A stretch of 64,000 bases of DNA from a virus. Taxonomy: Duplodnaviria > Caudoviricetes. The notes under the pieces were generated by a model that was not told the origin of the DNA, made no database searches, and worked only from the letters and a program-made list of their open reading frames with translations. This document shows, one piece after another, positions 480 to 45,500 of this stretch (positions are counted from its first letter, which is position 1; each line of letters starts with the position of its first letter). The translations under genes were made by a program, and so were the position numbers. The DNA is taken from IMG/VR virus record IMGVR_UViG_3300028805_000078, positions 1-64,000 of that record; one strand, given 5' to 3'.

Positions 480-1017
480 AGATTCTCCTTTCGTTTATAA
501 AACGTTCTTTCTCGAGTTCGTGGTCCGCAGCGGCGAGACCTGTTTGCATTACAAGAGGCACTATTTGTGAAAAAACGAGCGGATAAAACCGGTCGTCTTT
601 CGTGAGCCGTTCATTAAGATATTTTTCCCGAAGCAGTTCTTTTTTCATGCGCTGCCATTTGTCATCCGTAAACCTGTTAGTTTTATCCGGTACACGTTTA
701 ATAAACACCGGCGCACCTGTCTGATTACCGTTATTGTCACAAGGGAACCAACATAAAATTCCATTCGGGAAAAATTTTTTATACTCTTTTGAGTTTACAC
801 GGGTTCTGTAGTTAGACATAAAATCGATCAGCATATCGTTGCCATAAAGTGACGCAACAAGAACACGCCGAAGCGTTTCGTATATCCGTCCTACGCGAAC
901 CACTTGCCACGGAGAATAATTTTGATTCATGCTTTGCGTTTTGGATGCGAGCACATAAGAAGGACGCATCTTGCCTTTGACAGCGTCCTTCTCATCTATA
1001 ATGCCAAGAAAATACAT
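454..1017 (-). CDS. hypothetical protein (187 aa)
   Basis: ORF overlapping the RNAP-1 stop (TAATG); no motif recognised. Confidence 0.65.
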   Translation of the reverse strand: MYFLGIIDEKDAVKGKMRPSYVLASKTQSMNQNYSPWQVVRVGRIYETLRRVLVASLYGNDMLIDFMSNYRTRVNSKEYKKFFPNGILCWFPCDNNGNQTGAPVFIKRVPDKTNRFTDDKWQRMKKELLREKYLNERLTKDDRFYPLVFSQIVPLVMQTGLAAADHELEKERFINERRIYGKRKAKT

Positions 1018-3254
1018 TATGCAGCCTTCCTTTTTCTCAGCTTGCTGACGTTTTTACGCACCTGCAATCTGCGATATTCCTTCTGGCACTCAGGACAACG
1101 GCACTGGCGCGGGTTCAAGCGCTCTACCATTTTGCCGCAGCCTGCACACTCGAAATAATCCGGAAGACGATCTCTGCACCTGTGCTTCTTACTCCATTCA
1201 GGAAGACGTGTTCCGCAATGCTCGCATACTGTACATGTTTTCAAATTATTCTTAAGGCGTTCAAGTGCTATGTCTCCGAAGACGTTCCAGAATTCCTGTT
1301 TATAAGTACGTTTAACAACTCCGTCTCCCGCAAACAAAAATCGAACGATAGGCCCATACGCTTCTTCAAGCGGGGCAACTTCTTCGATTTTCTTCGCAAT
1401 AGATTCGGCAACAAGAAGCGTTTTCATCAGAGTACTTCTTTCGCCAAGATCTGAATTTTTCTGTGCGATAACATTGCAAAGTGTAGCTTCACTACAAGCG
1501 TTAATGAATGTTTCAACGGCCTGTTTGTTGTTTCCGGCATCGCTTTCGTTCATGAGCATCTTATAATTGAACGGAGGAACACCGGCATAACGCAAATCAA
1601 GACGTCCTACGTCATTAAACGCGGCACAGATACGGTTCATTGTAGAGTTGTTTGGAAGAGCACATTTCTCCGGGGGCAAACCGTCTTCACGACGCCCGTT
1701 CTTGCTGAACTGGAACCAATACGGCATTTTGCCTCGCTTGCCACCAATGGATTTCAGTATGCGTTTGTTGATTTCCGGATAGTTTTCATAAGAATCGATC
1801 CGTCCACATTTCGCCGCATCTATGACAGCATTGTTAAATCTTGTTAAACATGCAGCTGCAAATATATCCGGATTTTCTCTGTTCCAGAGTTTTGTCAAAT
1901 TATTCGACACCTGTCCGATGCCGCTGTAATCGTGTGCGCGTTTCAGTCCGTTAAACAATGTCTCGTAAGACAGTTGTTCTTTGTCGGCTTTGTAAGCGTC
2001 GTAGAACAGCGGAACGATGTCCATCTGTTTTATGTTTCGCTTCGCAGCTTCAATGATAACAGATTCGAGCACGCAGTTGAGCTGATCACCATCATTATCG
2101 AATTGCAGTATCCTTGAGATCAGATCGTGGCAGCTAGTATAAATGCCATTTGTTCTGAACCATTTGCGAACTTCGGTATCCTTACTGATTTTTCTGACGG
2201 CGTGCTCCATATACAAAGAGGGAGAACGCAGAACATCCAATTCCTCTTCGTTTTTATAGATTGGAGAGTAGACGTAGCCGTCCGGCAACAAACCTTTCGG
2301 TTCCGTTTCATCGAGGAACCAGAATTCACATGCCGCATAAAGATCCGGGATTGCAAAAAGCCGCTTGTTGTTGCACAGGATCGCGCCACTCTTTGCGTCG
2401 AGCACCATACGTTTCTTGATCGCTTTAAGCACATCGCGCGCATAGCCGTCCCGCAACAACTCGTTATAGATCGCAAGCGCAGCCTGGTAACTTCTGTCGC
2501 TTTGTTCGTCGGCACCGAGCGTACGAAGCATGCAATCTTTGTTTTTGTTCAGGTTTTTGATTTTATTATGCGTTTGATGTGTATATGCTTTGATATCATC
2601 GTCTGAAAAATCTACAAGTGCCTGTGTCATCTGGTAATTGAGTGTCGTATTTTGTATCCATGTTTCTTCGTAGTTCGTACAACACAAATGACAACCGCAT
2701 TCATTGAACTTGCGAACATAATCTTCCCAGGAATCATAATATTTTGCCATTTTGAACTGTGACTCCGTAAGAATGACGCGGATATCTTCATTAATAAGAT
2801 CGTGTTCCTTGCCCCAAAAATCTTTGAGAACAGGTTTGTGATCGTGAACTTTGCAAAATTCAATGTAATCAAACTCTGAAAGAAGCCCCTTGATCCAAGG
2901 CGCACGTATCATTACGTTCGCAGACGGAAGCGTTCCCGGTAATGCCATTCCGCAGCCGTCACAATGATTGATCAAAACGGTATAAATACCTCGTTCAAGG
3001 ACGTAACCGGGTTTAATATAATCCATTACGCCTGTAACCGGCGCTTCGAAGTCCTTGATAACGATACATTTTTCAATAGGAAAATCCCAAATTTCTGTCG
3101 CGGACGAGGGTAAGGAAAGGTACGCGCAATATTTATTAGAATTAATACCACCGCGTTCGTTTATTTCATTCCATGTGAGGCCGCAAGTCATTTGTGGCTC
3201 TATTTTTTTCCACATTTCATCCGACAAAAATTGTGTCTTATCGGTTCTTAATTG
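1017..3254 (-). CDS. YonO-like single-subunit RNA polymerase (RNAP-1), exon 2
   Basis: Motifs CDGCG, IRAPWIKG, LRSP, catalytic FDNDGD (nt 2085-2099), IGQVSN, IDAAKCG and C-terminal CxxC zinc ribbons. The frame is open from the predicted 3' splice site (QLRTDKTQFLSDEMWKK). Confidence 0.85.
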   Translation of the reverse strand, partial: QLRTDKTQFLSDEMWKKIEPQMTCGLTWNEINERGGINSNKYCAYLSLPSSATEIWDFPIEKCIVIKDFEAPVTGVMDYIKPGYVLERGIYTVLINHCDGCGMALPGTLPSANVMIRAPWIKGLLSEFDYIEFCKVHDHKPVLKDFWGKEHDLINEDIRVILTESQFKMAKYYDSWEDYVRKFNECGCHLCCTNYEETWIQNTTLNYQMTQALVDFSDDDIKAYTHQTHNKIKNLNKNKDCMLRTLGADEQSDRSYQAALAIYNELLRDGYARDVLKAIKKRMVLDAKSGAILCNNKRLFAIPDLYAACEFWFLDETEPKGLLPDGYVYSPIYKNEEELDVLRSPSLYMEHAVRKISKDTEVRKWFRTNGIYTSCHDLISRILQFDNDGDQLNCVLESVIIEAAKRNIKQMDIVPLFYDAYKADKEQLSYETLFNGLKRAHDYSGIGQVSNNLTKLWNRENPDIFAAACLTRFNNAVIDAAKCGRIDSYENYPEINKRILKSIGGKRGKMPYWFQFSKNGRREDGLPPEKCALPNNSTMNRICAAFNDVGRLDLRYAGVPPFNYKMLMNESDAGNNKQAVETFINACSEATLCNVIAQKNSDLGERSTLMKTLLVAESIAKKIEEVAPLEEAYGPIVRFLFAGDGVVKRTYKQEFWNVFGDIALERLKNNLKTCTVCEHCGTRLPEWSKKHRCRDRLPDYFECAGCGKMVERLNPRQCRCPECQKEYRRLQVRKNVSKLRKRKAA

Positions 3255-4436
3255 CGTATGATCCCTATTTTCATAGGGTACTGACTATATCTTACTACTA
3301 TAAAAGTAGAAACCCATTTCGAACTGCGTGCCAATAGCAGTCCTACTCTCCCGTTCCGGAGATAGTCGATACAGGCTCTGTCTATGCGACAGTTCCCACG
3401 GGATTAGCATGTGTATGCAAAATTGTATTTAAACAGGTTTCAACGTCTTCGTCGTAACGAATTTCATAAAGTGATATGTTATGATCTTTACAGTAATTTC
3501 TTTTCATTGGATCAGTTACAAGTCTTTGTTGATCTCCAAAGCCTTTTGGTCCAATTTGTTGGTAATGTTGTATTCCCTGAAATTCTATTAGACAACAAAT
3601 GTTATTATCATTATCGAATACCGCAAAATCAAACATTAAACGCGTCTTCCTTCCTTTTGCGCTAACCAAAAAGAGATCGTCTATTTTATAGTTCTTTCTG
3701 TATTTGATATTTTGCTCTGTCAAAAGTTTGGCGATTAACTCTTCTCCTTTTGATTTTACACAGCCGCAGGATACAACGTGCCCACTTAAGAAATCCGTAG
3801 TGGTAACATAAGTTATTCCACCGCAATCGCATTTACACAGCCACAACACCTGTCTGTGTGAACGCATATCTGTCGGTTCTATTGCAACAAGTTTCCCTGA
3901 ACGTTTATTGGAAATATCGACATAGAGTTTTGGTCCCATAACATCTTTCAATATGCAACCACATGATCTTGTCGTTCCATAATTCAGTCTTCCTGTTGTA
4001 ACATAACATATATTTCCACAATCGCAAAGACATTTCCAATATACTTTGTAATCTTTGATATATGCTTTTTCTACAACTGTAAGTTTACTAAAACGTTTAC
4101 CAGTTAAATCCTGTTGTCGTCTCTTTGAAGATAATTGGTTTCTCACGCAGCCACAACTTGTTGTATTACCCGAACGCATTGAGTAACCATCTTCAACGCA
4201 CTTATTGCCGCAATCGCAAATGCAATTCCATAAACTTCGGGAACCAGAACCAGATTTTTTAGTTCCTGCAAAACTTTCAACGAATAATTTTCCGAACTTT
4301 TGTCCGGTTATATCTTTAATTCTATTCATAACATTACACCTCCTTTCATTGATAGTTATTGCATACATTTAGCTTTCCCCGTTAGCCGCATAACGCGACC
4401 CCTTTGGCAAAGGAAAGGGATTTACAGGCCAAGTTG
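3255..4436 (-). mobile_element. group I intron (1182 nt) in the RNAP-1 gene
   Basis: Exon 1 ends in U (GCT GGT|) and the intron ends in G (CATACG|CAA TTA AGA). The IGS TTGGCC pairs with the joined exons GGT|CAA. The S element AAGATATAGTCAG and a P9 hairpin lie near the 3' end. Splicing restores CTASAG|QLRTDK in frame. Confidence 0.85.
3382..4329 (-). CDS. intron-encoded homing endonuclease (Cys-rich repeats plus Vsr/DUF559-like nuclease domain)
   Basis: Three repeats of D.TG..F.KL...W.C.CDCG...G...SCGC, then SKGE..FDFAV..LIEFQGIQHY. Probable start ATG 4329 after AAAGGAGG. Confidence 0.75.
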   Translation of the reverse strand: MNRIKDITGQKFGKLFVESFAGTKKSGSGSRSLWNCICDCGNKCVEDGYSMRSGNTTSCGCVRNQLSSKRRQQDLTGKRFSKLTVVEKAYIKDYKVYWKCLCDCGNICYVTTGRLNYGTTRSCGCILKDVMGPKLYVDISNKRSGKLVAIEPTDMRSHRQVLWLCKCDCGGITYVTTTDFLSGHVVSCGCVKSKGEELIAKLLTEQNIKYRKNYKIDDLFLVSAKGRKTRLMFDFAVFDNDNNICCLIEFQGIQHYQQIGPKGFGDQQRLVTDPMKRNYCKDHNISLYEIRYDEDVETCLNTILHTHANPVGTVA

Positions 4437-4979
4437 ACCAGCACTTGCTGTACAGAAATGAAAATGTTTTTCTACCAAATTTCCGTTTTCATCCTTGACA
4501 GTCATCGAAAATCCGTTTAGTACGATCTGCTCCAAAACATCAAGAGACCGCCACGATACAATGACTTTATCCATACAAACTTCATCCGTTTGTATGCCCA
4601 TTGCACGGGATTGTTCAGACACAAATTCACAAATTTTCTTTGTGATCTTAATGTTATCCCACGATACATAATCAGGCGGTTTACCGTTTTCGAAACACCT
4701 ATAATCGCACACGAGACGGGTGTTTACTTTTCTTGTAATGTTTTTATTGTGTGCAATAAGCTCTTTTAGTTTGTCCGCAGCTTCTTTTTTGACGTTTAAT
4801 ATTCGTTCTTTATGGTTTTCGTCTGCGTTTTTAAGCTTCATCAGTTCCGCGAGTTCCTGTTTGCATTTCAGGATAAGCAGATACTGTTCCGCTTCCTCAT
4901 CCGTGAACAGATCAGACGTAGACAGGCTTACAAGTTTGATCTGATTCAGGAGATAAGTCTTTTTCGAAATGAGCAACAC
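4437..4979 (-). CDS. RNAP-1, exon 1 (spliced product about 926 aa)
   Basis: 181 codons ending ...HFHFCTASAG, in frame with exon 2 after intron removal. Confidence 0.8.
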
Positions 4980-4995
4980 CTTCTTTCGATGTAAA

Positions 4996-5513: not shown

Positions 5514-5515
5514 AC

Positions 5516-5887: not shown

Positions 5888-5901
5888 TTTGTCACCCGCA
5901 T

Positions 5902-6361: not shown

Positions 6362-6374
6362 AAGAATGCCCTCC

Positions 6375-7235: not shown

Positions 7236-7239
7236 CTAA

Positions 7240-8456: not shown

Positions 8457-8567
8457 GGTTATTAGTTATATAGCAGGGGAACGGCGAGTTGGCACTCTCG
8501 CATCTCCTAACGTTTGGCGACGGCTGCCTGTTCCGTCCTCGGTTCCCCTGACTGAATCATTTATGAG

Positions 8568-9689
8568 TTATCCATGCAGTATTCTTTTCGTGATTTCTTT
8601 GAATGACACGTTGTATTTTTCTTCGAGTTTTCGCACCATGTAATCTGTGTATTCCTGTTCGATGCTGCGATAATAGCTATAGATTCCGCACATGTAGTTC
8701 ACATCTTCTTTGTTCCACATGACACCGTTGATCCAGTCTGCAAAGAAGTTATTGACCATTGCCTTGAAGATCTTTTTCTTCGCGTGGCCGACCGTAATAT
8801 TGTGGTCCTTATTTAAATTGAGCCCAAGCATGTAGTTGATGCCGGCGACTGAAGAAAATTTCGTCTTTTCCGGTTTGATACGGAACGGTGCGCCGAAATC
8901 TTCGAGCACTTTATCTATGTAAGAGACCATGCGGTCTTTATCGAATTTAGTATAGGAACTGATCTGAATATCGTCGGCGTAACGCGTATAAACAAACTTC
9001 TTCTTCGATACGAGCTCCTTGAAGATCGTGTAATCGATTGGAATCATCATTGCGTTCGTGAGCATCGGCGATATAACAGTTCCCTGCGGAAGTCCGCCAT
9101 GAAGGAAGCAGATCGAAAGAGACGTCTTCAACGTTTCTTTTTCGTCGTCTGTCCAGAAACAAAACGGATATTGCATCGTGAGCATCTTCAGCAGAAATTC
9201 GGGCGTTATCGAACCGAAGAAGTTGCTGAAGTCTGTTCTCAGACACCAGTTTGAGTTGTTGAGCTTATGCTTCATGACTGCATCCTTTGGACAGCGTCCT
9301 TTTATATACGCAAAAGCTGCTGTATGGTAACTGACTCCGTAGTATTTAAGCAGCAGTTCTTTCAATTCGTTCTGCGCTTTCCTGAGTTCAGCGTCCGGAT
9401 CGTCGATCTTTCTGAACCCGCCGTGCGCTTTCGGAATCTTGAACGATCGGTAATGCGTGGAAAGATCTGACTCAATCAGATTCTTATACTTTTCGTTGAA
9501 GATTTTGAGTCTGCTTGCGCGATACATATACAGACCACTACATCTATGTCTTAAGTCGGTTCTCGTTGTCGTCCAGTTTCCCTTTGGCGAATAGAGATAA
9601 AGATTCTCGATTTCGCCGTTCAGAATATCGTCGATCGATATTCTTTTAACGGGCTGTTTTGCAGGCTTCGTACAATAGAATTCTTGCAT
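8568..9689 (-). CDS. retron-type reverse transcriptase (373 aa)
   Basis: IPKAHGGFRKI, AAFAY..DAVMKH (region-X-like), DFSNFF, GLPQGTVISPMLTN, YTRYADDI and MLGL at the region-Y position. No maturase/endonuclease extension and no DGR-type SQ motif. Confidence 0.88.
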   Translation of the reverse strand: MQEFYCTKPAKQPVKRISIDDILNGEIENLYLYSPKGNWTTTRTDLRHRCSGLYMYRASRLKIFNEKYKNLIESDLSTHYRSFKIPKAHGGFRKIDDPDAELRKAQNELKELLLKYYGVSYHTAAFAYIKGRCPKDAVMKHKLNNSNWCLRTDFSNFFGSITPEFLLKMLTMQYPFCFWTDDEKETLKTSLSICFLHGGLPQGTVISPMLTNAMMIPIDYTIFKELVSKKKFVYTRYADDIQISSYTKFDKDRMVSYIDKVLEDFGAPFRIKPEKTKFSSVAGINYMLGLNLNKDHNITVGHAKKKIFKAMVNNFFADWINGVMWNKEDVNYMCGIYSYYRSIEQEYTDYMVRKLEEKYNVSFKEITKRILHG

Positions 9690-15211: not shown

Positions 15212-15222
15212 TTTCTTTCTTT

Positions 15223-15252
15223 CCCTTATAAGTCATTAGTGAATGATTACAT
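15223..15252 (-). promoter_or_regulatory. putative phage RNAP promoter (30-bp motif), leftward copy
   Basis: Reverse complement ATGTAATCATTCACTAATGACTTATAAGGG matches four plus-strand copies. Confidence 0.75.
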
Positions 15253-20099: not shown

Positions 20100-20571
20100 A
20101 ATGTTCCTCCTTGCGTCGCTATTGCTTAGAATTTCTAGTAAATTACTAGAAAATTTTGAGTTCTGTGAGTTCGGTAGATAGATTGTCCATCCACCGAGAT
20201 ATATCTAAAAAATTCTAATAAATTACTAGAATTTTTAGAGCAAAATGATATAGTGCGATTCACTCCTTAAGAAAGAAATTAAGAAATAAATTGCAGGGGC
20301 GGCCGAAGAAAGACCGCCCCTACTTAGAAAGGAGGGCCTGCTGTACAGGCTTTATAGTCACAGGGGTCACCACTCCCTGCATGAATCGTGCTTAGCTCCT
20401 GTTTTCGGAATGACAACGGGAGGCAGGAGGTAGACCTCCCGTTGCCGTAGACAGCGCCTGCCACCACACAGTCGCTATAAATCATAATAAGCCCCGCGCA
20501 CGCGGGGATAAGACTCTGTCCAGGTAAAAGCCCACCGGTATATGATGGGCTTTTATGCGGATAGTGCCGCA

Positions 20572-20949
20572 TCAAATACAACCGCCGCATTCACCGCAGC
20601 GGAAGTCCTGCTCTTGAATTAATTCGTAGAGCAAGCGCTGATCGCGCTCTTCGGGCAGTAAATCGGATGCCCATTTGTTTTGCGCGATCCATTCAGGGAA
20701 CTCCATGCCGTCGACGTAGTCCTCCCAATTCTCATCGAAGTTCGAATCGAAGTACCAACGGCGATGCTCACCTTTGGTATACATAGAAGAGCTTGCAACT
20801 TCTTCGGGGAGATCAACTTTCTCACCGTCTATGCGGATAATCCATTCTCCGTGGCAGAGCGAGAATCCGCCGCCGGTCCATTCCACTTCGATGGAACGAG
20901 TGGAGGGATGGGTATATTCAACAACGGGTTTGAACCGATCGGCTCGCAT
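20572..20949 (-). CDS. hypothetical protein
   Basis: AAGGAGG RBS; ends CGECGGCI. Confidence 0.7.
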   Translation of the reverse strand: MRADRFKPVVEYTHPSTRSIEVEWTGGGFSLCHGEWIIRIDGEKVDLPEEVASSSMYTKGEHRRWYFDSNFDENWEDYVDGMEFPEWIAQNKWASDLLPEERDQRLLYELIQEQDFRCGECGGCI

Positions 20950-21763
20950 TGGTTTTCCTCCTTCGTTGCGCCTTAGGTGATTTCCCCGGCTTGGGACGGG
21001 GATTGCGCATTAACCCCGCTTAGCGGGGCCCCTCTGCTTGCGTTAAGCTGCCATAGGAACGTCCTGCGGCGCAGTTTCCTGCTTCGCAAGTTCCGCCCTA
21101 ATTTCTTCTGGAGTCTTATCCTCCCAGGAAAACTTAACGGTTCCGTTAGAAGTAACAGTATAAGACATGACAATACCTCCGTTTATCGTCTTGTAGACGT
21201 AATTATGGTGGACGCTCAATTTGCTCTGGCGCTGAACGTCCGAAGCGCCGTAGATTGCATGTTGCTTTCACCCTGCCTCCATGCCAGGCAGGAACCACAA
21301 ACGGAGTGAAACCCGAAGTGCGGAAGCGAAACTCGATAACCACAATGTGGTTATTTTATTTCATAGGTGCACCCCGGCCGCCAGGCCGGGATACCTGAAG
21401 AGTAGTTTGTTGAAATAGAAACGGAATAATCGTAGTGATTCAGATGTGTATACGGTGAGCATCAGATGCGTGGACCTGATGCTTACACGAAGCAGGCCAA
21501 TCGGGAGGACCTGATGCTTATACGCAATCTGAAGCGAAGTGAGCCGAAGGCGAGCGGAGCGTCGAGCGAAGCGAAAAATCCCCCCGCCCGGAAAATAATG
21601 CCCCCCCGCATTCGGCTCAAAGAGCCGTCCTACGATGACCCGCGTGGATCACAATAGGACAGCTCTCTGTCCGCCGCAGGCTGAGCATATAATTAGCTTA
21701 GCACTGACTAAAGCCCCACAACCGAAGTCATGGGGCTGAGGTCAGTGTTATGCCGGAATCAGG

Positions 21764-24271
21764 TTACCAGGGCATTTCCTCATCTTCGTCGTCGTCGTCC
21801 TCGCAATCGTCAAGGTCATCAAGGTCGATAACGGCGCTGAGTGCCAGAGAGCCAAAGCGCTCGCTGAGCGCGTCGACGATGTAATCATTCAGACAATCCC
21901 AGAGGACACGCTTGTAAGTTTCAAGCGCCGGCCCTTCGTTCATCGTGTAGATGTAATATACAATCAGGTTGTAGACATGCTGCACGGTGCAGCCGTACTT
22001 TTCGGCGTAAAGTGCCATCAGCTTTTCGATCATCTGCTTTCTCAGATCGATAATCGTAGTGTATTCGAGATTGCGGCTCGCAGCCATCTCGCGGAGCTCG
22101 TCACTCGTGGCAAACACCAGCTGATCAAACTGACCGCCGTTTACGTACTTCGTGTTGCCGCTTTCGTCCTTTACGATCTTGCCGTTCTCGTCGCGGAGAG
22201 GTTCGCTGCGTTTGAACACCTTTGTGTTCTGTACGGACGGGAGCTGAGCGTCATACATCAGGTTCTCCCAGAAGAATTCTCCGTTGATTTTGGCACCAAA
22301 TTCAGCCATCTTCTTGGTATGTTCGTTGATGAAGATTGAGTACTGTTCAAGCGGGTGATTCGCCTTTTGCTCATACTTGGTTTCATCAACCACGTCCTTT
22401 ACGGGCTTGCCAATGTTCTTTGCAATTTTGGCAAACTTGATAAAGGTGGGCATCTTCTTGGTCATCTTCTTGACAGCTTTGGGCATAGGCAGATCGGTAT
22501 CGCCGTGCTTTTCAATGTCTACGGTGATTTCTACCTTTTTCTGCCAATATTCCACGCAAGCCTTTGCATCCGCAACGCGGGCTTCGTCTCCGTCAACGTA
22601 AGCGTCGTACAGATCGGAGTAAGCACAACTCAGCTTGTTGCTGACTGAGCCAATCTGAGAAGGTTTTATGAGGTTTGTAAAGTAAGCCATCCTTATATTC
22701 TTCGCCGTTGTCTTGTCGAAGGTGACCTTCTTTGCGTGTCCCGCAGGGGTGTTGGGCATTTGGGTGGGATTACCCATCTCATCGAGGGTTTCTGAGATGA
22801 TTTTGTGGAAATCTTCGTCCGTTACGACGAAGACTTTATCTCCGTCGTAGTCTGCTCCGCCGAGGCGACGAAGCGAATCGTCGTAGTTGTTGAGCACCAT
22901 TACGTTTTTGTCCGTAATGCCCATTTCTATGTGCTTATTGTTGAGAACAACCCAACTGGCCTCGCTGGTGTGGGGGTATCGGATCATTATCGTTTTGCCT
23001 TCGGGCAACGCTGCGCAGCAGCACTCACCTGCTTTGAGGCCGTTGCCTCCGAAAAGGTCGATTGGATCACAAGTGATTGCGTAGAATTTGCCTGCGTTTG
23101 GCAGTGCACCTCCGCGCAGCATCATCTTCTGTTTGCGATAGGCCACCTGGCCCGTCTTCTTGACGTAACCGTCAAGGGCAAGCTGCGGGTAGATCATAAC
23201 CGCTTCCCGCATCGCGGCGGGAAGAAGCTTTACAAAGTTGTTGAGGCAAGCAAGAGAGTCAAGGTACGAGCAGCCGAGCCGCTTGAACTTCTCAATGTTC
23301 TCTTCAGAGAACGCGAGGGTTTGAAGCGGCTGGTAGGTCATGTGTTTCAAGCTGTGCTTGTTCATGCGGACGGCTACTGAGATACCGGCATCTTTGACAG
23401 CGGAAATCTGCTGTTCTTCGGTTTTGGCGAGGCTGATAAACTTCTCGCCAGATTCGGAGAGGAGAATCTGCGTCTCGGAGATCTTATGGATTTTGCCCCA
23501 GGGCGTCTTGTACTCGGGGTCGAATCCGAGTGCGTCAAGGAAGAGCCTTTTGTTGACGGGGATCGCCAACACCTTAGTGGGACGGAGGCTTGCTGCCTCG
23601 GACGGGAGGTTGTTGTCTCCATCGAAGACGAAGCAGGCGGAATCGGACGCGTTGTGTCCGTTGCGATACACATCCTTCATGATGTGCATCTTTTCGAAGT
23701 TGATGTTAAAGTTGGGATACACTTCCTCGATGGGCGCGGAAGTGGAGAAGAACAGACCCAACCTGGTGAAGAATTTGTTGGGTTCCATGGCAGTGCCGGA
23801 GATCGTGAAGCCGTGGCGGAAATGTTTGGAAAACATCTCCAAGTGTTCAGCTTTTACCCAAATGGACTGGGCTTTCTTCGCGCCGGAGGCGGTGGCGCAA
23901 AGAGGGAGGTAGAGATGGTTGTTCAGGGTTATGCCGTTGTGGCAGAGGTTCCACCAGCTCGTTCTGATGGATTTGTTCTCTTTGTTCTTTTCGTCCTTTT
24001 CGTTGATGACGGAATTTACAAAAATGAATTCTTCTTCGGGGTTGAAGCCCTTGCTGATGGCGTAGCGGAATGCGGCATTGCTGCCGTGCGGCTCAACGGT
24101 GGTGGTGCCGTTGATATCGTAGTTTACGATGTTGAAGATGTGCTTGGTGGCGATGTTGTTGTTGATGACTTGACAAAGAAGTGAATTAGTGGTAGAATGT
24201 GACATGGTGGTTTCCTCCTTATTGATGTTGTTGTTGATGATGGTGGTGTTGGTAGCATTAAGATTCTTCAT
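21764..24271 (-). CDS. second single-subunit two-barrel RNA polymerase (RNAP-2)
   Basis: CATASGAK (cf. CTASAGQL), IRYPH, LGGADYDGD (DYDGD at nt 22838-22852), IGSVSN, VDIEKHG, collinear with the RNAP-1 motifs. Alternative start at 24205. Confidence 0.75.
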   Translation of the reverse strand: MKNLNATNTTIINNNINKEETTMSHSTTNSLLCQVINNNIATKHIFNIVNYDINGTTTVEPHGSNAAFRYAISKGFNPEEEFIFVNSVINEKDEKNKENKSIRTSWWNLCHNGITLNNHLYLPLCATASGAKKAQSIWVKAEHLEMFSKHFRHGFTISGTAMEPNKFFTRLGLFFSTSAPIEEVYPNFNINFEKMHIMKDVYRNGHNASDSACFVFDGDNNLPSEAASLRPTKVLAIPVNKRLFLDALGFDPEYKTPWGKIHKISETQILLSESGEKFISLAKTEEQQISAVKDAGISVAVRMNKHSLKHMTYQPLQTLAFSEENIEKFKRLGCSYLDSLACLNNFVKLLPAAMREAVMIYPQLALDGYVKKTGQVAYRKQKMMLRGGALPNAGKFYAITCDPIDLFGGNGLKAGECCCAALPEGKTIMIRYPHTSEASWVVLNNKHIEMGITDKNVMVLNNYDDSLRRLGGADYDGDKVFVVTDEDFHKIISETLDEMGNPTQMPNTPAGHAKKVTFDKTTAKNIRMAYFTNLIKPSQIGSVSNKLSCAYSDLYDAYVDGDEARVADAKACVEYWQKKVEITVDIEKHGDTDLPMPKAVKKMTKKMPTFIKFAKIAKNIGKPVKDVVDETKYEQKANHPLEQYSIFINEHTKKMAEFGAKINGEFFWENLMYDAQLPSVQNTKVFKRSEPLRDENGKIVKDESGNTKYVNGGQFDQLVFATSDELREMAASRNLEYTTIIDLRKQMIEKLMALYAEKYGCTVQHVYNLIVYYIYTMNEGPALETYKRVLWDCLNDYIVDALSERFGSLALSAVIDLDDLDDCEDDDDEDEEMPW

Positions 24272-24621
24272 TGCAATAACCTCCTTAAGATGAAACTACT
24301 TGGAGGCGGTGGTGGTGCACTGCCTCTTTTTTGCTCTTCGCCCGCGTCATGCGGCTTACGGCGGATTCAGTACCTATGGAGACTGCCATAGCAGGGTTGG
24401 TTACTTTTGCTGCAGCAGTGCAATGACTGCTACAACAATGTCCGTCACAACAGCCCACCAAGGGGCTGTTGCAAATACGAATAAACTGAACAATGTCACG
24501 TATTTCACCTCCTATTCGTGACATCTTGACAACACGTGAGAATGTGTTGTCTTGTTTAACCTTAATTTACGCCAGAAAACTGACGTAACTTAAGATTTCA
24601 TCTAACATGTTTTCTTCCAAC

Positions 24622-24673
24622 TCCAACTTCATTTCCAACTTCATTTCCAACTTCATCTCCAACTCATCTCCAA
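24622..24673 (+). repeat. tandem repeats TCCAACTTCAT(T/C)
   Basis: Three 12-mers (24622-24657), one 11-mer variant and a partial copy running into the promoter motif. Confidence 0.85.
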
Positions 24674-24702
24674 TGTAATCATTCACTAATAACCTATAAG
24701 GG
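24673..24702 (+). promoter_or_regulatory. putative phage RNAP promoter (30-bp motif)
   Basis: ATGTAATCATTCACTAATAACCTATAAGGG. Confidence 0.75.
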
Positions 24703-24831
24703 GAAGAAAGAAAGCTCGCATCACCTCTTGTAGGCAACGTGAAAGATGTAATCTCCGAAGGAAATTAGACCCCGCTGTGGTGTAATCTCTGAAAAAGATG
24801 TAATCTCCGAAGGAGTTTAGATCCCGTAGGG

Positions 24832-24861
24832 ATGTAATCATTCACTAATAACCTATAAGGG
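24832..24861 (+). promoter_or_regulatory. putative phage RNAP promoter (30-bp motif) upstream of the packaging genes
   Basis: Identical to 24673-24702. Confidence 0.75.
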
Positions 24862-24878
24862 GAGAAAGAAGAGGCCGA

Positions 24879-29717: not shown

Positions 29718-29790
29718 GCTTCTATAGCTCAATAGGTAGAGCAGGTCACTTGTAATGATCAGGTTGTAGGTTCAATTCCTACTGGAAGCT
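29718..29790 (+). tRNA. trnT: tRNA-Thr(TGT)
   Basis: GCTTCTA/TGGAAGC acceptor stem, GCTC..GG..GAGC D arm, anticodon loop CT-TGT-AA, T arm GTAGG-TTCAATT-CCTAC; no encoded CCA. Confidence 0.92.
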
Positions 29791-30239
29791 CGAAATAGAT
29801 CTCCATAAAGATGGTGAAGCAAGATGGTGAAGCGATGACACCCTAAAAACACTCGTGGAGCACTCTACACGTTAAACGGATGCTTTATGATACCCTGAGA
29901 AGTTATAGCCGGGATGATTACGGTGAAAGCGGAGGGATATAACGGTTCTCGATTTACCAGAGGTCATCTTAGCCCACAGATAAAGAGCTCTTGTTTGGCG
30001 GCGAAAGAAAATCGAATAGTCGGAATGGAGACTTTAAACCCATTTCCATTAGTCGGGGCGGAGACTTTAAATACCGTACACGTTTCGGGCTGATCGAAAG
30101 ATCCGGGTCCACCTTTCGGCGGGGAAATCCCCCGCCACTTTTGATATCTCGCGCTCAATGCGCTTGATATAAATATATCTGCTAAGCTTTGGATATGTCT
30201 CCTACCGTAGACAAAGCGAATGCAAGTTAGGAGTGCAAC

Positions 30240-35811: not shown

Positions 35812-35841
35812 ATGTAATCATTCACTAATGAGCTATAAGGG
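35812..35841 (+). promoter_or_regulatory. putative phage RNAP promoter (30-bp motif) upstream of the major tail gene
   Basis: ATGTAATCATTCACTAATGAGCTATAAGGG. Confidence 0.75.
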
Positions 35842-36014
35842 AAAGAAACAATATGCATATGCATATGTTGCTTCGAGGTTGTATTGACTTTAGCAGTAAA
35901 AGTTATAGTTAGCAGAAGCAATCAAGGTTTAATAAGGCTAAAGACGGTATCTGCGTCTTGTTTGTAGGAGGGCAACGACGTTGATATAAATATAGTTTCT
36001 AAGAGGTAGATATT

Positions 36015-36183: not shown

Positions 36184-37053
36184 AAACAAAAGATGCGCAA
36201 GTAAAAACTCTTTCTAAACGGGGAAAATCTCATTGAGACAACCTACCGTGCTAAATTAAAATTCAAACAAAAAGGATATAAAACATGGAAATTCACAACG
36301 GCAAATACACAATTTATTATCATCAAAACAAAATAAATAATAAAATGTATGTCGGCATCACAAAGCGTAAACCTTATATTCGGTGGGGTAATAATGGCAT
36401 TGGATATAAACATTGCACATATTTCTATAATGCAATTCAAAAATATGGATGGGATAATTTTGAGCATGTGATTTTTGCTTCTAATCTCACAAAAGAGGAA
36501 GCTTGTCATATGGAATCAATTTTAATAAATAAATTCCAAACAAACGACAAAATTTATGGTTATAATGTTTGCGAAGGTGGTGGCCTACCGCCCGTCCAAT
36601 ATGGAGAAAGAAATTACTTTTTTAACAATCATCAATATAGTGGAGAGAATCATCCAATGTATGGGAAACATCACACGGATGCAACCAGAAAAAAGATGTC
36701 AGAACATCATTATGATTCCTCTGGCTGCAACAATCCGATGTCAAAACGAGTTGTGTGTGTAGAAACTGGAGTTATATATCCAAGCGCTATTGATGCTCAA
36801 AAATCAACTGGTATTCCAAGGAATAATATAACTGCAGCTTGTCGTAAAGATAGGCAAGTTAGCGCAGGCGGATTTCATTGGAATTTTGTTTGAATTTTAT
36901 AAAAGCCTAACGACTATACCGTAAGGTAGTAGCTCTAAGTAGAGCGAAAAGAAAGAGACTGCTTATTGCAGGTGATATAGTCTGATCTATATGGCGACAT
37001 ATAGCTGTCTTTTTAAGACGGGCACGGATTAACGAACCGTGTTGAACAAAACG
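36184..37053 (+). mobile_element. group I intron (870 nt) in the major tail protein gene
   Basis: IGS AAGATGCGCAA pairs with the joined exons TTGCGT|ATCTT with U.G at the splice site. R-like CGACTATA and S-like GATATAGTCTG elements; terminal G at 37053. Splicing gives YPVAY-LPAASSLEMQL in frame (273 aa). Confidence 0.88.
36285..36893 (+). CDS. intron-encoded GIY-YIG homing endonuclease
   Basis: TIY...KMYVGIT..R, GYN, NUMOD3-like NHPMYGKHHT..TRKKMSE and a C-terminal NUMOD1/IENR1-like HTH. Confidence 0.88.
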   Translation: MEIHNGKYTIYYHQNKINNKMYVGITKRKPYIRWGNNGIGYKHCTYFYNAIQKYGWDNFEHVIFASNLTKEEACHMESILINKFQTNDKIYGYNVCEGGGLPPVQYGERNYFFNNHQYSGENHPMYGKHHTDATRKKMSEHHYDSSGCNNPMSKRVVCVETGVIYPSAIDAQKSTGIPRNNITAACRKDRQVSAGGFHWNFV

Positions 37054-39022: not shown

Positions 39023-39033
39023 CGGAGGCACAT

Positions 39034-39597: not shown

Positions 39598-42500
39598 ATG
39601 GCCGATAACATTACAATGAATTTTGAATTGACCGGCGTTACTAAAGCTATTAGCGATGTAGAGAAATTAGTTCAGGTATCTGGAGAATTAGCTGCTCCAA
39701 TGAGAGAAGCAAAGACTGCAATAGGCGGCGTAAGTGAAGAGATTAGTGCAATAAAAGAGGGATTTGATTTAAGTTCTTTGAGTTCTGGCGCTGCCAGTAT
39801 GCCAGATATGTTGCAAAACTCTATTAACGCTATGGCTCAAGCGTTATCTCAGAGTGCTAAACAAATGCAGCAAGCTATGAAAGTATCCGGAGGGCAATTA
39901 ACCGAACAGCTCCAAATCGCGCAAACATATCTTGCTGTAAATTCAAGAATTTTAAATAACAATATTCAGACTGCCCGTGCTTTATTGCATGATGTTTCGC
40001 CTACACAAAGGAGCGCCTTTAACAGTTCTTATACAACAGCGGCACAAGATGCGGCAAATGTCTTCAGGAATTTCGCAAACACTAACGGTAGCGCTATGTC
40101 TGATAGATCTTTGGAATTGATGCTGCGAAATAATAAAATCGTATCTTCTGGTGTTTCGAGGATGGCGAAAAATACCGGGGCAAAAGAAGATTTGATTTAT
40201 AAAAGTTTGGTTCAAACTGCTGCAGCGCCTTTTATGCGTCGGGAAGTAATTAAAGACATCCAAAGATTAAGCGGTGGCCTTATTGATCCTACAAAAATAC
40301 AGGCACCAAAAGGAAACTTTTATAGCAGGTTGCCGGAACAGTTCCGAGGTTTATCTACCGTTATTACTCCTTCAACTGAAGCGGACATTTCAAAGTTTGT
40401 TCGTGGTAACGGTATCAAAGCATATAAAACTATCGAAGGCAATAAGCTTTACAATGAATTGTTAAATGAGATAACCGGCAATGCCCATCGAAAAGGAAAC
40501 ATAACGCTTGAACGAGCGTTGAATGCAGCCGGAATCCAGACGCGTTTTAAAGGCGGTTCTCAAGTTGGTTTGCCAACACGAATCGACGAAAGAACGTTGG
40601 CTTATGTTGGTGGCTTTTTGCATAGGTCATTGAATAATTATCTCGAAGGAGCTCCTTCGTATCTTGCTAACATGTCGCATTTATCCGACGATGATGCTGA
40701 ACGTCTTGGTGCGAAGAACGGAACTGTTGCAAGAGAAGTTGATTCCGCCTTTAGGATTCTTGCTAAAGCGGGTGTAAAGGATCTGTTGTACACGCCGAAC
40801 GGTGCGAGGCTGCCAAGCGTTGGAAATCCTAAGAATATAAAGTACATTTACAGCAAGCATTTGGCGCCACAAGGGATAAGACCTGATGAATTTGTTATAC
40901 CTTCAGTTACATATGCAGATTTTGGTAAAGGTGTTTTGCCTACAGCAAGAGACGGATTGATTCGGTATAGTGATAGTACGAATGGCAAGACTACGAATAA
41001 AATGATTTCCAGAAACATTCTGACGGATTTGCTTGGCATGCAAGGTAATCTCACATATGGCAATGGCAGTAAAACTAATATGGGTATTCCAAAGTTAATT
41101 TACGTAGACTTTGGTGAAGATGCTTATGCGAAAAAAGATAATGGTGAATTGGATTTTGATGAAACAGGAAACGTTAAATATAATGATGCTACGAAGAAAA
41201 TAATAACTGACATGTTTGATAAATCTAAACATAGTAAAACTATAAGAGGTTCGAAATATAGTTACTCTGTTATAAAGGGTGGACCGAACGGAGACACGAA
41301 TTATGTTCCTATTTCTACTAAACATGGTTCCGTAATCTTGGCTGCTGAGGGCGATTACGACGATCCTTATTCTTATGTTAGTATGTCAAAACGCAGTCTT
41401 GATACATTTGGCGTAAATGTTTTTGACGCATTTGAAAATATGGAAGAAGTAGTAGGTACGAACAAACAGCGTGCTAAAAAGATGGACACGAGAAATAGGT
41501 CTATTACTCCCTCTATTCCTTTTGCAGAAATGCAAGGATGGAGTATTCCTGGCCGTTCGAAGACTGCAATTTTGTCAATGAAAGACTTGTTTAAACTAAA
41601 GGATGGCGATAGTGATGCTGTAGGTATTGAAGGTACGGGCATCATATCTCCTGGTTATATTCCGGATGCTGCAGTTATTAGAATGCCGGGCGTTAAAGGA
41701 TCGTTGTTGCCTGTAAATCTAAAAAATATGGTGCAAAAAGTTTATGGAAATGTTGAAAGCCTATATGCACCAACTGTTACAGCTTCTGACGACATGAAGA
41801 AAGCATGGCATACAGGTGGCATTGATGCGGTTGTTAAACAATTTGGAGATAGTGTACTGTCTAATGGTCAATTTGTTGATGTTCTTAAGATGGATATGTT
41901 GTTGAGCGATGACTTGCTTAAGAGTTCTTTTTATACCAAAGGAATAAAAGATGGTGCAACGCATGAACAATTAGTTGATAGATTTTATAAAGTACTTGAG
42001 TTTATGGATTTATCTGGCAAAAACAATCCGCTTCAAGGAATAAGAGCTGTGCAGACTGCTGCAGGTTTTCAATCTCAGAAAGATGTGCTCAGTAATCAGG
42101 TTGCGCAGTATCTTAATATGGACTTTGATACTGCGAGCATGAACCAAAGCAGGTGGACCGAACATATTAACAAATTGAAATATAATGATCAATATGCATA
42201 CGATCAACTATTTAAACACGAGATAGACAAACAAGAAGATGTAATGGCGGCTATGCTCAATCCGGATAGTCAGATAGCAAGGAAAAGAAGAGAAGCTATT
42301 GCAAAAGCAGAAGAAGACAGGATGTACGGACGGCTATTTGGTGAGAACGAATTTATGATGGGCATGGCGGCTTTGAATCCGTTTGATTTTGTTAAAGTGT
42401 TGGCAGAAAGAAACGGCAAAGGGCAAAAGGGGTTAAATGTTGTCAATAAAGAATGGTTTGATAAACTGGGTCTGACTGGTAAAGGTGGAAAAGCTGGTAT

Positions 42501-45500
42501 TGCTGCTGCATTAGGCGGTTTCGCATTGGCATCCAATATTGCTGGTCTTCGATTTCCTAATAACTTCGGTGAGCAATTTCCTTTATTGAACAATAAAGAG
42601 TATATTGATTCTTTGAAAGAATTTGGAATGTCTCCGAATGCAATCTATATGAATGCTGCAACGTTGCGTAAAATGGGCACCGGAGATTTCGACGGAGATA
42701 CAGTACAGCTGATTAAAGGAAAATATGCGGATATTATAAGGCAGACTTTTGAAAATAATAAAGACCTTATAAAATGGGATGAATACGGCACAAGAATCGG
42801 AAGATTGGAAGAACCTAAAGATGTAGAAGAGAATAGGCCAGTTAATCCTGAAGATTGGGCTCAATATCTTTATCGACAGGCAGCGGCGAGGTTCAGGCTT
42901 GGACGAATCAGTAACGCTTCGGGCGCGATAGGACAGGTTTCGTCTAATGATGTACTTAGATCACTATATGCCAAAGGTGCGCTTGATTTGGCTGATCAAT
43001 ACGATATTGATACTACGTGGATTAAAACTGGTGTAGCTGCAAACTGGAGCAAAAATGCAAACAAAGTTAAACAGTATTTAGGCACTCCGTTCTCCTCTGT
43101 ATTTAAAGATATGATTGGCGCTGTTGCCTCTGGCGATTATTCGAAGTTCGGTGATCTATCAAAGGTAAATATGCCTAGTATATATAATGCATCGTCTATA
43201 GCGTTGATGGAAGAACTGACGAGATCACCGTTAAGTTCAAACGCCGTAGACCAATTGCTGAAAGCTCAGGACAGTATTCAGAACCTGTTAACGCCTGAAC
43301 AAATGAAACAAGGGCATGGTACTGCGTTTGAAAGAGCTCGCACCGAATACTTTAGGGCAAGAAATAAACGAATCGCAAACGCTATAACCGGCCGCGGCTT
43401 TATACCATCGCAAGAAGACGATGATGCACTCGAAGCTTTGTATGCCAGTTATCGTGCCAGCGCTTATGAAACATTCAGAAATTCCAAGAGTTTAGGAATA
43501 ACACAAGATGAAAAAGATAGAATAGGGCGAGAATTGAGAATACAGGAAGAAATACATAATGCATATAAAACATTTGGTTTAAGTCATGAAAACGTCGAAA
43601 AAGGCTTGGGGTATTCTGGATATGTTAAAAATAATGCTGGTAATTATGTTGCCAATAATGCATATACGCAAGGTCAGTTAGATGCAAATCCAGATCTCGA
43701 TAAAGTTAATTATGGTACAGCATTAACGATGGGCGGAACTTTGGCTGAAGCCGGAATACAAAGCACAGTACGCGAAAGACAGGAAGCTGAAGCCGCGCAG
43801 TATGCGAGAGATACATTGTTTGGAACTAATCCTCGAAGATGGTCTATATCTAATCTTAGATTATACAGAAGAAATGCAATAGACTGGTACAACCATACGG
43901 TTAATGATGCCGATATAGGCAATCAAGGCTTCGATCCTTTTGATACGGCGCTTGGTTCAGCCGTTCATAGTAGACTTGAAAGTATTATTAATGCGCGGTT
44001 GCAAAAAGATCTTGCATTGTCGGAGCCTGAGATATTAAAAGGCGTTGAAAGAAAAGAGCGTAAAGATAATGGAACAGTGGAAAACAATTTAATACCTCTT
44101 TTAAAAGAAGCTGGATTAAAGAATTATTTTAATGAAAATGGAGAATTGGATTTTCAGTTCCATGTAGATGATGCAGCTAAGCTAAATAAAGCTATTGAGT
44201 TTGTTAAACTTGCAAGTTCTGCGGACTTTTTGAAAGATGAAGATATTGTTGCCAGTGAATTTAAAACAACATTAGATTTAGGCCAATATAAACATAGTGC
44301 ACGCAAAGGTCAGGATATTGCAACTATAGGTTATGCTGATTTAGTCACATATCGTCATGATAAAAATCATCCTGAAAACAGCGGTTTCATTATTAATGAA
44401 TTTAAATCACATGAAGCAAACGATGACGGCCGCGAACAAACTGGTGTATATGGATTAAGTATTGAGAAATTAATCCAAGCCGGAATGATTAATGTAGATA
44501 AGCTGCGTGCAAGATATGGTGATAGTTTTAACCCAAGAGTTGTAGGCATCAGAACTTTTGGCTACTTAGATGAAAATGGTGCGCCGATGATTATTCCATT
44601 TGGCGAAGGAACTGAACAGAGACAAAAAGCTCAGGAACAAATGGAAGCTTTTGGTAAAGATGTTTCTAAAATTGAAGAAATGGCATTCAGCAAAGAAGGT
44701 CTTCGAGCCGCTATAATGGCAGGAAGGCAAGACATTGTTGATGACGTATTTTCATTTGTGCCAAAAGTATATAAAGATCAACTAGAAGCAGAGATTGGTT
44801 CGGACAACAGCCGCGAAAGTCTGCATAAAGCACGAGGCGCATTATTAAGTGATGAGACACGAAAGCAAGATGCGAGAACAATAGCTGAAGCATTTTCTTT
44901 GAGAAAAGACGTAGATACATATATCGATCAGCTTGACAGTATGTATTATGAGCTGAATCGAGAAGGTATCGATGCCCCGAAAGTAAAAGATAAATGGGGT
45001 TTGAAATGGTCGCAGATAAACAGTTCTTATGATAATAAACTGCAGGAATTTATAAATAGAGGTTTGACTTCAGAATCAGAGGAAATAGTTTCGATTAAAC
45101 GTGCACGTGATAGAAATATAACAGCCTATAATAGTAAATTACTTGAGATGGCTCCAAAGGATTTGTCTGATTTAAAGGACCGGTTGAATGATTCTGTTTC
45201 GAATATAGGAAAGAGTAGGTTTGTTTCAGAGAATGAAAAATATAAAGAAAAGTTGAATCTGATGATTGAAGAACAATCTTCTGCTTTGAATCAACTTGAA
45301 AAGAATAAAGACCAATACGCTGGAAATGAAGATGTTTACGAAAGCTCTTTGGCAAGAGCTCGTGCCAATTTAGAGGAAGTAAAACAATTAAGAGATAGCT
45401 TGGTTGAAAACTCTGATATACATTTAAAGATTAATCTCGAAGGCGACGCATTGCGCGATTTAAAACAGGCTCAATCGATATTACAGCAATTTGGATTTAA

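Follow-up and report, generated by a model that had tools for sequence, protein, structure and literature searches.

Phage-encoded RNA polymerases that travel in the virion are known from several systems. The closest precedent to the phage described here is Thermus phage P23-45, in which gp96, a 5002-residue tape measure protein, carries a flat, clamp-less two-barrel RNA polymerase (RNAP) near its N-terminus that has been shown experimentally to transcribe a pre-early block including the gene of a second, non-virion RNAP, gp64 (Chaban et al. 2024, PMC10770324; PDB 8H2M/8H2N and 8F72). In Bacillus phage SPbeta, a large temperate siphophage, a single enzyme, YonO, is a proven DNA-dependent RNAP which transcribes the late genes (Forrest et al. 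2017, PMC5467207). In coliphage N4 an injected polymerase embedded in a very large virion protein starts a staged programme that continues with a second phage polymerase (RNAPII) and then host RNAP. However, the N4 enzymes are T7-like right-hand polymerases, and the virion enzyme is not part of a tape measure protein. [quoted passage not shown] None of these crAss-like and jumbo-phage enzymes is fused to a tape measure protein, and none comes as a set of three.

Here we analysed a 64,000-nucleotide window (positions 1 to 64,000 of the 116,061-bp IMG/VR record IMGVR_UViG_3300028805_000078) from an uncultured, long-tailed and probably temperate siphophage known only from sheep-gut metagenomes. 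A first-pass annotation had proposed that the phage encodes three divergent polymerases with a DxDGD motif, namely RNAP-1, RNAP-2 and a domain fused to the tape measure protein, sharing collinear motifs but little other similarity and possibly forming a self-contained transcription cascade. The observation of three such polymerases is confirmed, while the cascade interpretation is only partly supported, as discussed below. The relevant genes and domains are as follows.

1017..3254, minus strand: RNAP-1 exon 2 (745 codons), with both barrels, IRAPWIKG and RSP...DNDGD (nt 2085-2099)
3255..4436, minus strand: group I-type intron of 1182 nt, with the conserved AAGATATAGTC core
3382..4368, minus strand: intron-borne HNH homing endonuclease ORF (328 aa)
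4437..4979, minus strand: RNAP-1 exon 1 (181 codons, ending ...CTASAG)
21764..24271, minus strand: RNAP-2 (835 aa), with LRPTK and IRYP...DYDGD (nt 22838-22852), the first large gene of the leftward arm
24285..24524, minus strand: 79-aa ORF with an AGGAGG ribosome-binding site, the only gene ahead of RNAP-2 on the leftward arm, for which no family was found
39598..56049, plus strand: giant tape measure protein gene (5483 aa)
40885..43287, plus strand: tape-measure-fused, predicted two-barrel RNAP domain (about aa 430-1230), with IRMPGVKG and LRFP...DFDGD (aa 1030-1034, nt 42685-42699)
43837..44601, plus strand: weak PD-(D/E)xK nuclease-like stretch following the polymerase domain in the same protein

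The three motifs are the only D.D[GT]D matches among the 142 ORFs of the whole record. Shuffling each protein gives a mean of 0.58 D.DGD (3 or more in 24 of 1000 shuffles), whereas the extended signature [RK]xP-x(20-100)-DxDGD, seen in 3 proteins, has a shuffled mean of 0.079 (3 or more in 0 of 1000). Profile-profile alignment (hhalign) puts both the RxP...DxDGD block, which belongs to the barrel homologous to beta-prime, and the upstream second-barrel block with its conserved basic residues in register, over 696 columns for RNAP-1 against RNAP-2 (probability 99.3%, E 1.8e-20) and over 620-655 columns for either against the fused domain (probability 96.7%, E about 4e-10). All three are therefore homologues with intact catalytic motifs. 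R346, K351 and G352 are at least 90% conserved in the fused family and R230 and K233 are invariant in the RNAP-2 family, with catalytic columns overall invariant or at least 90% conserved in 25 fused-domain and 13 RNAP-2 sequences.

RNAP-1 is an orthologue of YonO, with 36% identity over 95% of the length (E 3e-112), hhalign E 3e-124 against YonO and E 7e-160 to phrog_8308, the YonO family profile, which also hits B. subtilis in the control genomes. Its assignment to the two-barrel class rests on this identity. The first-pass annotation placed RNAP-1 at 1017-4979, but this is not one reading frame: the two exons are separated by the intron, and joining them gives a 926-aa protein that aligns without a gap to 10 uninterrupted homologues across TASAG|QLRTDK. 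The boundaries read GGU|C...ACG|CAA, so that U precedes the 5' splice site and G is the last intron base. The HNH ORF matches phrog_374 (E 2.8e-49) and phrog_559 (E 1.3e-24). The Rfam Intron_gpI model scores only 20.7 bits (E 0.016), below the gathering score of 50, although the long ORF insertion and the subgroup may depress the score. Two paralogous introns with shared cores and HNH ORFs lie elsewhere in the genome, one of them splitting the DNA polymerase gene, while an AAGATATAGT word at 18176 is not an intron. In several SPbeta-like phages yonO is likewise annotated in pieces or only partly matched. Two sheep-gut metatranscriptome runs hold 88% and 53% of the sampled words of the RNAP-1 region, but since RNA runs may hold DNA we do not count this as expression.

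RNAP-2 is a rare and divergent YonO/RdRP-type paralogue. It passes the Pfam RdRP model PF05183 (54.1 bits against a cut-off of 23.8, E 1.5e-14) and matches phrog_8308 (E 1.4e-23) and YonO (hhalign E 1.4e-15). An AF2 model (pLDDT 81.7, pTM 0.79) aligned structurally with VIA-align resembles RDR2 (Z 19-22.5; at best 613 residues aligned, rmsd 4.8), QDE-1 (Z about 17 to 17.9), the P23-45-type non-virion RNAP (Z 13) and, more weakly, the crAss-like and jumbo-phage enzymes (Z 11.9). Since the best family hit is RdRP and the best structural matches are eukaryotic RNA-dependent enzymes, and since the gene sits in a GC-rich island next to a twister ribozyme, an unusual RNA context, RNAP-2 might instead be an RNA-dependent or primer-making polymerase of the QDE-1/RDR kind, making antisense or double-stranded RNA, replication primers or a counter-defence product. 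We consider this unlikely, because many close RNAP-1 homologues carry the same Pfam family while their orthologue YonO is DNA-dependent, because RNAP-2 is closer to YonO than to anything else tested, and because its position matches that of the non-virion transcriptase of P23-45.

The third domain sits in a genuine tape measure gene. Tape-measure PHROGs match from about aa 2060 onward, Pfam PhageMin_Tail matches at aa 2348-2552 (93.6 bits), and the gene is preceded by terminase, portal and head genes and followed directly by Dit (56250-57329) and a 1323-aa Tal-like protein, so the domain should be carried in the virion. The AF2 model (pLDDT 78.5, pTM 0.78) finds RDR2 and QDE-1 in Foldseek (E 3e-11 to 1e-6), and VIA-align gives Z 15-15.8 for RDR2 (at best 528 residues aligned, rmsd 6.7), 13.5 for the gp64 type, about 13 for QDE-1, 10.2-10.3 for P23-45 gp96 and 6.8 for the crAss-like and jumbo-phage enzymes, against 4.9 for the next unrelated chains. 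A two-barrel fold, which had been named beforehand as a condition for the cascade, is thus predicted for both RNAP-2 and the fused domain. The window's tape measure protein gave no phrog_8308 hit at E up to 0.01, while a relative's tape measure protein is hit at E 2.4e-8, and the profile of the fused-domain family against YonO gives E 5e-4 at a probability of 31%. The nuclease-like stretch rests on a below-cut-off Pfam PDDEXK_1 match (E 0.018) and on matching conserved blocks in the consensus of relatives. The fused family occurs only inside giant tape measure proteins: about 20 cluster representatives carry the domain, and all full-length ones are 3.9-5.9 kaa proteins with it at aa 330-1220.

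The architecture is shared with P23-45, namely a giant tape measure protein with a polymerase near its N-terminus and a DFDGD metal loop, a second phage RNAP gene near the head of the arm that diverges from terminase and portal, and the existence of distinct conserved promoter (here promoter-like) motifs. The first-pass annotation cited SPbeta and N4 but did not name this direct precedent. At the sequence level, however, no relationship is detectable: phmmer against PDB sequences, which include gp96, gave no hit at E up to 1, tblastn of the fused domain found nothing in 50,697 GenBank phage records, and hhalign gave probabilities of 1.8% to gp96 and 0.1% to gp64. The stretch between the two barrel motifs is about 330 residues, longer than in RNAP-1 and RNAP-2, and the domain is structurally nearer to RDR2 and QDE-1 than to gp96. 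In a tree, built from a trimmed set with a quick search only, the fused family forms its own clade while gp96 pairs with gp64, so the fusion may have arisen independently. In SPbeta only YonO matched our queries, and each GenBank phage record that the RNAP-1 query hit was matched at essentially one place (39 places in 38 records), whereas the phage described here has two further paralogues. The phage described here, with three polymerases rather than two, also differs from P23-45 in its source, an animal gut rather than a hot spring, and in having an integrase. A scan of 185,579 GTDB species genomes for the fused domain found no relative, so no host could be named; strong AGGAGG ribosome-binding sites hint at a Gram-positive host and one RNAP-1 homologue is labelled Paludibacteraceae MAG, but both clues are weak.

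It is possible that the fused domain does not act as a promoter-specific transcriptase but is a relic, a structural plug or mainly a motor pulling DNA into the cell, with early genes read by host RNAP. The phage is probably temperate and must be able to start from host RNAP after induction, and no promoter class could be assigned to the domain. We nevertheless regard this as improbable, since the three aspartates, the RxP block and the RxPxxKG block are at least 90% conserved across family members sharing only 27-37% identity, which is not expected for a relic, since a motor role would still need polymerase chemistry, and since the P23-45 precedent shows such a fusion transcribing pre-early genes.

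RNAP-2 heads the arm that diverges from the packaging and structural arm, mirroring the position of gp64 in P23-45, and RNAP-1 starts 19 kb further down the same strand. A search for related loci with the single fused-domain sequence found nothing, and the full 25-sequence alignment was too diverse for it, but a smaller alignment recovered relatives, and all five related IMG/VR genomes checked carry the trio in the same order (RNAP-1, RNAP-2, the divergence point, the tape measure gene), with DxDGD kept in all five RNAP-2-like genes. The control elements within the window are listed below.

15216..15252, minus strand: copy of motif 1 (ATGTAATCATTCACTAATnnnCTATAAGGGrArGAAA), the first downstream of RNAP-2 and 10 kb upstream of RNAP-1
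20130..20235, no strand: two copies of a palindrome (AATTTCTAGTAAATTACTAGAAATT-type)
24525..24878, no strand: divergent control region between the arms, with 12-nt tandem repeats and two rightward copies of motif 1 (24673-24709 and 24832-24868)
35812..35848, plus strand: copy of motif 1
56088..56124, plus strand: copy of motif 1

Motif 1, a 35-nt promoter-like motif, has nine intergenic copies genome-wide on both arms, all pointing the same way as the genes. It heads the structural operons and is absent from the 9 kb between the divergence point and 15252 that holds RNAP-2. However, it also precedes replication-gene blocks and lies upstream of RNAP-1 itself, so that assigning it to RNAP-1 or to RNAP-2 is arbitrary, and with the YonO promoter undefined it could not be compared with that system. 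With up to 3 mismatches it is absent from the five relatives, and no shared repeat emerged from their partial loci. It is the only strong, phage-specific promoter-like class that we found, where three polymerases would suggest more; searches for a further dispersed class on the leftward arm gave only ribosome-binding-site-like words, a local 12-nt tandem array at 24613-24670 and the intron cores. The claim that each polymerase has its own promoter class is therefore not supported. The 17-bp motif of the first-pass annotation is a perfect palindrome whose only copies besides those at 20130-20235 are at 83.0-84.0 kb, 1-2 kb from the integrase gene (81066-82007), so it looks more like an operator; no repressor family was found near the palindromes. 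A sigma-70 consensus scan of 19.9-25.0 kb found no site upstream of RNAP-2 on its strand and no more sites than chance, and no sigma factor was detected in the genome (no Sigma70_r2 match reached the cut-off); a search for a T7-like RNAP (PF00940) did not recover its control and is uninformative.

We consider it somewhat more likely than not that the three paralogues divide the transcription programme in time. In this view the fused polymerase leaves the virion with the tape measure protein at infection and transcribes the DNA entering first, assumed to be the head of the leftward arm, next to the packaging genes, which carries RNAP-2. RNAP-2 would then take over early or middle transcription, and RNAP-1, made after intron splicing, would transcribe the late structural and lysis genes, probably from motif 1. 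Our analysis establishes the homology, the predicted fold, the conserved catalytic residues, the tape-measure context, the conserved gene order and the intron junction, while carriage in the virion, enzyme activity, the order of action (including RNAP-2 before RNAP-1) and the pairing of polymerases with promoters are inferred from position and from the P23-45 and YonO precedents. Nor is the proposed self-containment supported, since the genome has an integrase, one relative is classed as a provirus and a prophage being induced has no virion enzyme, so that RNAP-2 cannot rely strictly on the fused polymerase and host RNAP probably still serves lysogeny control and prophage induction.

A less likely but still possible alternative is a two-tier programme, in which the fused polymerase starts infection and RNAP-1 and RNAP-2 are alternative or partly redundant enzymes, for example serving lytic infection and prophage induction respectively or in reverse, or different gene sets at the same time, with host RNAP covering lysogeny control. 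The single strong motif, the integrase and the operator-like palindromes would fit this, as would the fact that P23-45, N4 and phiKZ use two phage polymerases. In the tree the RNAP-2-like genes of the relatives do not form one clade and in part group with the RNAP-1 lineage, which suggests repeated duplication or replacement rather than a fixed third tier; they are fast-evolving and may not all be orthologous. On the other hand, all five relatives keep both non-virion genes in the same relative positions with intact DxDGD, which argues for distinct, selected roles, and RNAP-2 lies in a motif-1-free block while a motif-1 copy lies upstream of RNAP-1.

A more far-reaching reading, which is doubtful on present evidence though not excluded, is that a widespread group of animal-gut siphophages runs a three-polymerase programme, in which a YonO-type polymerase fused to the tape measure protein independently of the Thermus case is injected to transcribe the first-entering DNA and two paralogues with their own promoter specificities take over in succession. 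This would make the phage largely independent of host RNAP during lytic growth and would be the first three-tier, all-phage-encoded two-barrel polymerase cascade.

A tape-measure-fused virion polymerase has been shown by experiment only in one group of Thermus phages. The window shows the same architecture in an unrelated sequence family, from a different habitat and a probably temperate phage, which raises the question of how a phage that normally starts with an injected enzyme starts from a prophage, and with a third polymerase paralogue conserved across relatives. Three homologous but very divergent single-chain polymerases in one genome, together with a crisp 35-nt promoter-like motif, form a natural set for studying how minimal cell-type polymerases gain promoter specificity and are a possible source of orthogonal transcription parts. 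If the fusion arose twice, then coupling transcription to DNA entry through the tail is a recurrent solution rather than a curiosity.

The 116,061-bp IMG/VR record, rated about 95% complete by CheckV, is organised into two divergent arms, and near-identical DNA occurs in sheep-gut metagenomes. Genes run rightward from 24,879 to about 79.3 kb and encode the terminase, portal, head proteins, a 5483-aa tape measure protein, Dit, a Tal-like protein and further tail proteins. Genes run leftward from 24,524 through position 1 and, across the ends of the record, from 116 kb down to about 79.6 kb; this arm holds RNAP-2, RNase H, a reverse transcriptase and RNAP-1, followed by an SSAP, a primase-helicase, exonucleases, a split DNA polymerase, RuvC, NrdD, PhoH, an endolysin and an integrase. 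Several smaller elements lie along the two arms:
8477-9689 (-), a reverse transcriptase gene (phrog_2825, E 1.3e-45) with a skipping-rope RNA motif (Rfam, 49.7 bits) immediately downstream of it
29718-29791 and 30086-30133 (+), a tRNA-Thr (anticodon UGU) and a DUF3800-XI RNA motif (63.8 bits), between the portal gene and the next head-module gene
36285-36893 (+), a free-standing GIY-YIG-type homing endonuclease ORF (phrog_314, E 6e-32) in the head-tail module, just downstream of a copy of the promoter-like motif described below

The observation of the first-pass annotation, three D-x-D-G-D motifs in one genome, holds: the motifs are where it placed them, and they are the only D.D[GT]D matches among the 142 ORFs of the genome. 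While a bare D.DGD is expected 0.58 times by chance, the signature used in the literature, [RK]xP-x(20-100)-DxDGD, is expected in 0.08 proteins and is seen in three.

The RNAP-1 stretch (1017-4979), however, contains three ORFs, of which the middle one is an HNH homing endonuclease in another frame. Exon 1 ends in CTASAG at 4437 and exon 2 begins with QLRTDK at 3254, and joining them gives a 926-aa protein that aligns without any gap to ten uninterrupted homologues of 900-950 aa across the conserved TASAG|QLRTDK. The 1182-nt insert has U before the 5' splice site, G as its last base and the AAGATATAGTC core, although it scores only 20.7 bits (E 0.016) against the Rfam group I model, below the curated threshold. 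Two paralogous inserts with the same cores and related HNH ORFs lie elsewhere in the genome, so that there are three related group I-type introns, inferred from sequence, each with an HNH endonuclease ORF and sharing the cores GGCTAACGGtGAAAGC and GAAGATATAGTC:
3255-4436, interrupting RNAP-1
106003-106947 (HNH ORF 106131-106832), interrupting the DNA polymerase gene (N-terminal half at 106948-108591, C-terminal half at 104341-106002)
about 112.1-113.0 kb (HNH ORF 112216-113016), at a third site near the primase-helicase and exonuclease genes
RNAP-1 is 36% identical to SPbeta YonO over 95% of its length, and hhalign against YonO gives E 3e-124. Its family is large, with more than 1900 database hits.

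RNAP-2 (835 aa) passes the Pfam RdRP cut-off (54.1 bits against 23.8) and matches the YonO profile at E 1.4e-23. Only 14 relatives were found among 5.8 billion proteins, and none in 50,697 GenBank phage records. Its AlphaFold model (pLDDT 81.7, pTM 0.79) aligns to RDR2 at Z 19-22.5, to QDE-1 at about 17, to the P23-45-type non-virion RNAP at 13 and to phi14:2 gp66 at 11.9. The surroundings of the gene show three further features:
20324-24271, a GC-rich island (0.50-0.53 against 0.424 for the genome) covering RNAP-2 and the stretch downstream of it
20985-21038 (-), a type-P5 twister ribozyme (Rfam 55.3 bits, gathering score 37.6) about 730 nt downstream of the RNAP-2 stop codon and in the same sense, which could cut the early transcript
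24170-24198 (+) and 24302-24327 (+), a near-consensus sigma-70 promoter (TTGACA, 17 nt, TAGAAT, with TG) antisense inside the 5' end of RNAP-2, followed by a terminator-like hairpin
The RNAP-2-like loci of all five relatives are likewise GC-richer than their RNAP-1 loci, which we cannot explain. The antisense promoter and hairpin together could give a short antisense RNA across the RNAP-2 start codon, although the number of such sites in the region is not above chance.

Tape-measure profiles match the giant ORF only from about aa 2060 onward. Residues ~430-1230 have 47 relatives among 1.84 billion cluster representatives, and all full-length ones are proteins of 3.9-5.9 kaa with the domain at aa ~330-1220, while no free-standing form appeared. 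With these relatives as the alignment, the predicted structure reaches pLDDT 78.5 and pTM 0.78. Foldseek puts RDR2 and QDE-1 first (E 3e-11 to 1e-6), followed by the gp64-type enzyme at 9e-4, phi14:2 gp66 at 0.012 and P23-45 gp96 at 0.06-0.12. VIA-align gives Z 15-15.8 for RDR2, 12.6-13 for QDE-1, 13.5 for the gp64-type enzyme, 6.8 for gp66 and 10.3 for gp96, against 4.9 for the best unrelated chain. The columns of the aspartate triad, RxP and RxPxxKG are at least 90% conserved among members that are only 27-37% identical to the domain studied here. The polymerase domain is followed by a further stretch, whose matching conserved blocks appear in the consensus of the relatives' tape measure proteins:
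43837-44601 (+), aa 1414-1668 of the tape measure protein, a PD-(D/E)xK nuclease-like stretch (Pfam E 0.018, below cut-off)

How do the three polymerases relate to each other? Profile-profile alignments are near full length and put both barrels in register, with E 1.8e-20 over 696 columns for RNAP-1 against RNAP-2 and about 4e-10 over 620-655 columns for each of them against the fused domain. None of the three families is significantly similar in sequence to P23-45 gp96 or gp64. In a quick maximum-likelihood tree of 43 sequences on 778 columns, with SH-aLRT support only, the fused domains form one clade (99), YonO and the RNAP-1 family form another (98), RNAP-1 and RNAP-2 types together exclude the fused domains (98), and gp96 pairs with gp64 (99). 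The RNAP-2-like genes of different phages are long-branched and do not resolve as one clade. Taken at face value, the tape-measure fusion described here and the one in Thermus phages lie on different branches and two origins are therefore more parsimonious than one, although at 10-16% identity this remains tentative.

Nine IMG/VR loci carry the fused domain. In all five whose records were searched (76-151 kb), the YonO profile finds one strong RNAP-1-like gene and one weaker RNAP-2-like gene, and in one of the five it also hits the tape measure protein itself (E 2.4e-8). The coordinates give the same order in each of them: RNAP-1, then 17-34 kb further on RNAP-2, then the strand switch, then about 15-22 kb of structural genes and then the tape measure gene. 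Every RNAP-2-like gene keeps DxDGD.

Among potential control elements one motif stands out, ATGTAATCATTCACTAATnnnCTATAAGGGrArGAAA. Nine copies match its 18-nt core with at most one mismatch, and the downstream CTATAAGGG block is also conserved. All copies are intergenic or lie in doubtful small ORFs, and all point with the genes. Two tandem copies head the structural arm, while others follow the head module (35812), follow the tape measure gene (56088) and lie at 78401; on the leftward arm, copies lie at 115265, 104338, 93904 and 15252. None lies between the divergence point and 15252, and RNAP-2 and its roughly 9-kb block must therefore be read from something else. The 17-bp motif singled out in the first-pass annotation is the core of a 25-nt perfect palindrome, which occurs only at 20.13-20.24 kb and at 83.0-84.0 kb, the latter 1-2 kb from the integrase gene. 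This symmetry suits a dimeric repressor better than a single-chain polymerase. No repressor family was recognised near the palindromes. Near the integrase the following elements are found (genome coordinates):
81066-82007 (-), the integrase (phrog_1, E 8e-63)
82206-82649 (+), a small ORF beside it with a weak, sub-threshold match to DUF1492 (ArpU/sigma region 4-like)
83070-83998, the palindromic operator-like sites
Our searches revealed no third dispersed motif, no sigma factor in the genome and no sigma-70-type promoter in front of RNAP-2.

The direct precedent is Thermus phage P23-45, in which gp96, a tape-measure-fused virion RNAP shown by experiment, transcribes a pre-early block that includes the non-virion RNAP gene (PMC10770324). 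Its gene layout is the same in outline as that of the phage described here. Full-text literature searches found no description of a tape-measure-fused polymerase outside the P23-45 group, and none of three two-barrel polymerases in one phage. The survey table in Chaban et al. is titled 'two or more' RNAP polypeptides per genome, and in two of its ten parts, those examined here, the few non-jumbo siphophage genomes each have two entries.

The cascade suggested in the first-pass annotation, in which a virion polymerase transcribes RNAP-2 and this leads to RNAP-1 for the late genes, each enzyme having its own promoter class, is only partly supported by these results. If packaging starts near the terminase genes and proceeds rightward, the last DNA packaged would be the RNAP-2 end, and it would be the first ejected, but this is an assumption and not a result. 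YonO transcribes the late operon of SPbeta (PMC5467207), which makes RNAP-1 the natural late enzyme. What the analysis establishes is the homology of the three polymerases, their fold, their conserved catalytic residues, the tape-measure context of the fused domain, the intron junction in RNAP-1 and the shared gene order in the relatives searched, while carriage of the fused domain in the virion, the activity of the enzymes, the order of their action and the assignment of promoters to them are inferred and unproven. The most likely reading is an injected polymerase followed by two non-virion polymerases, with the integrase, the operator-like sites and a relative classed as a provirus implying that host RNA polymerase probably still has a part.
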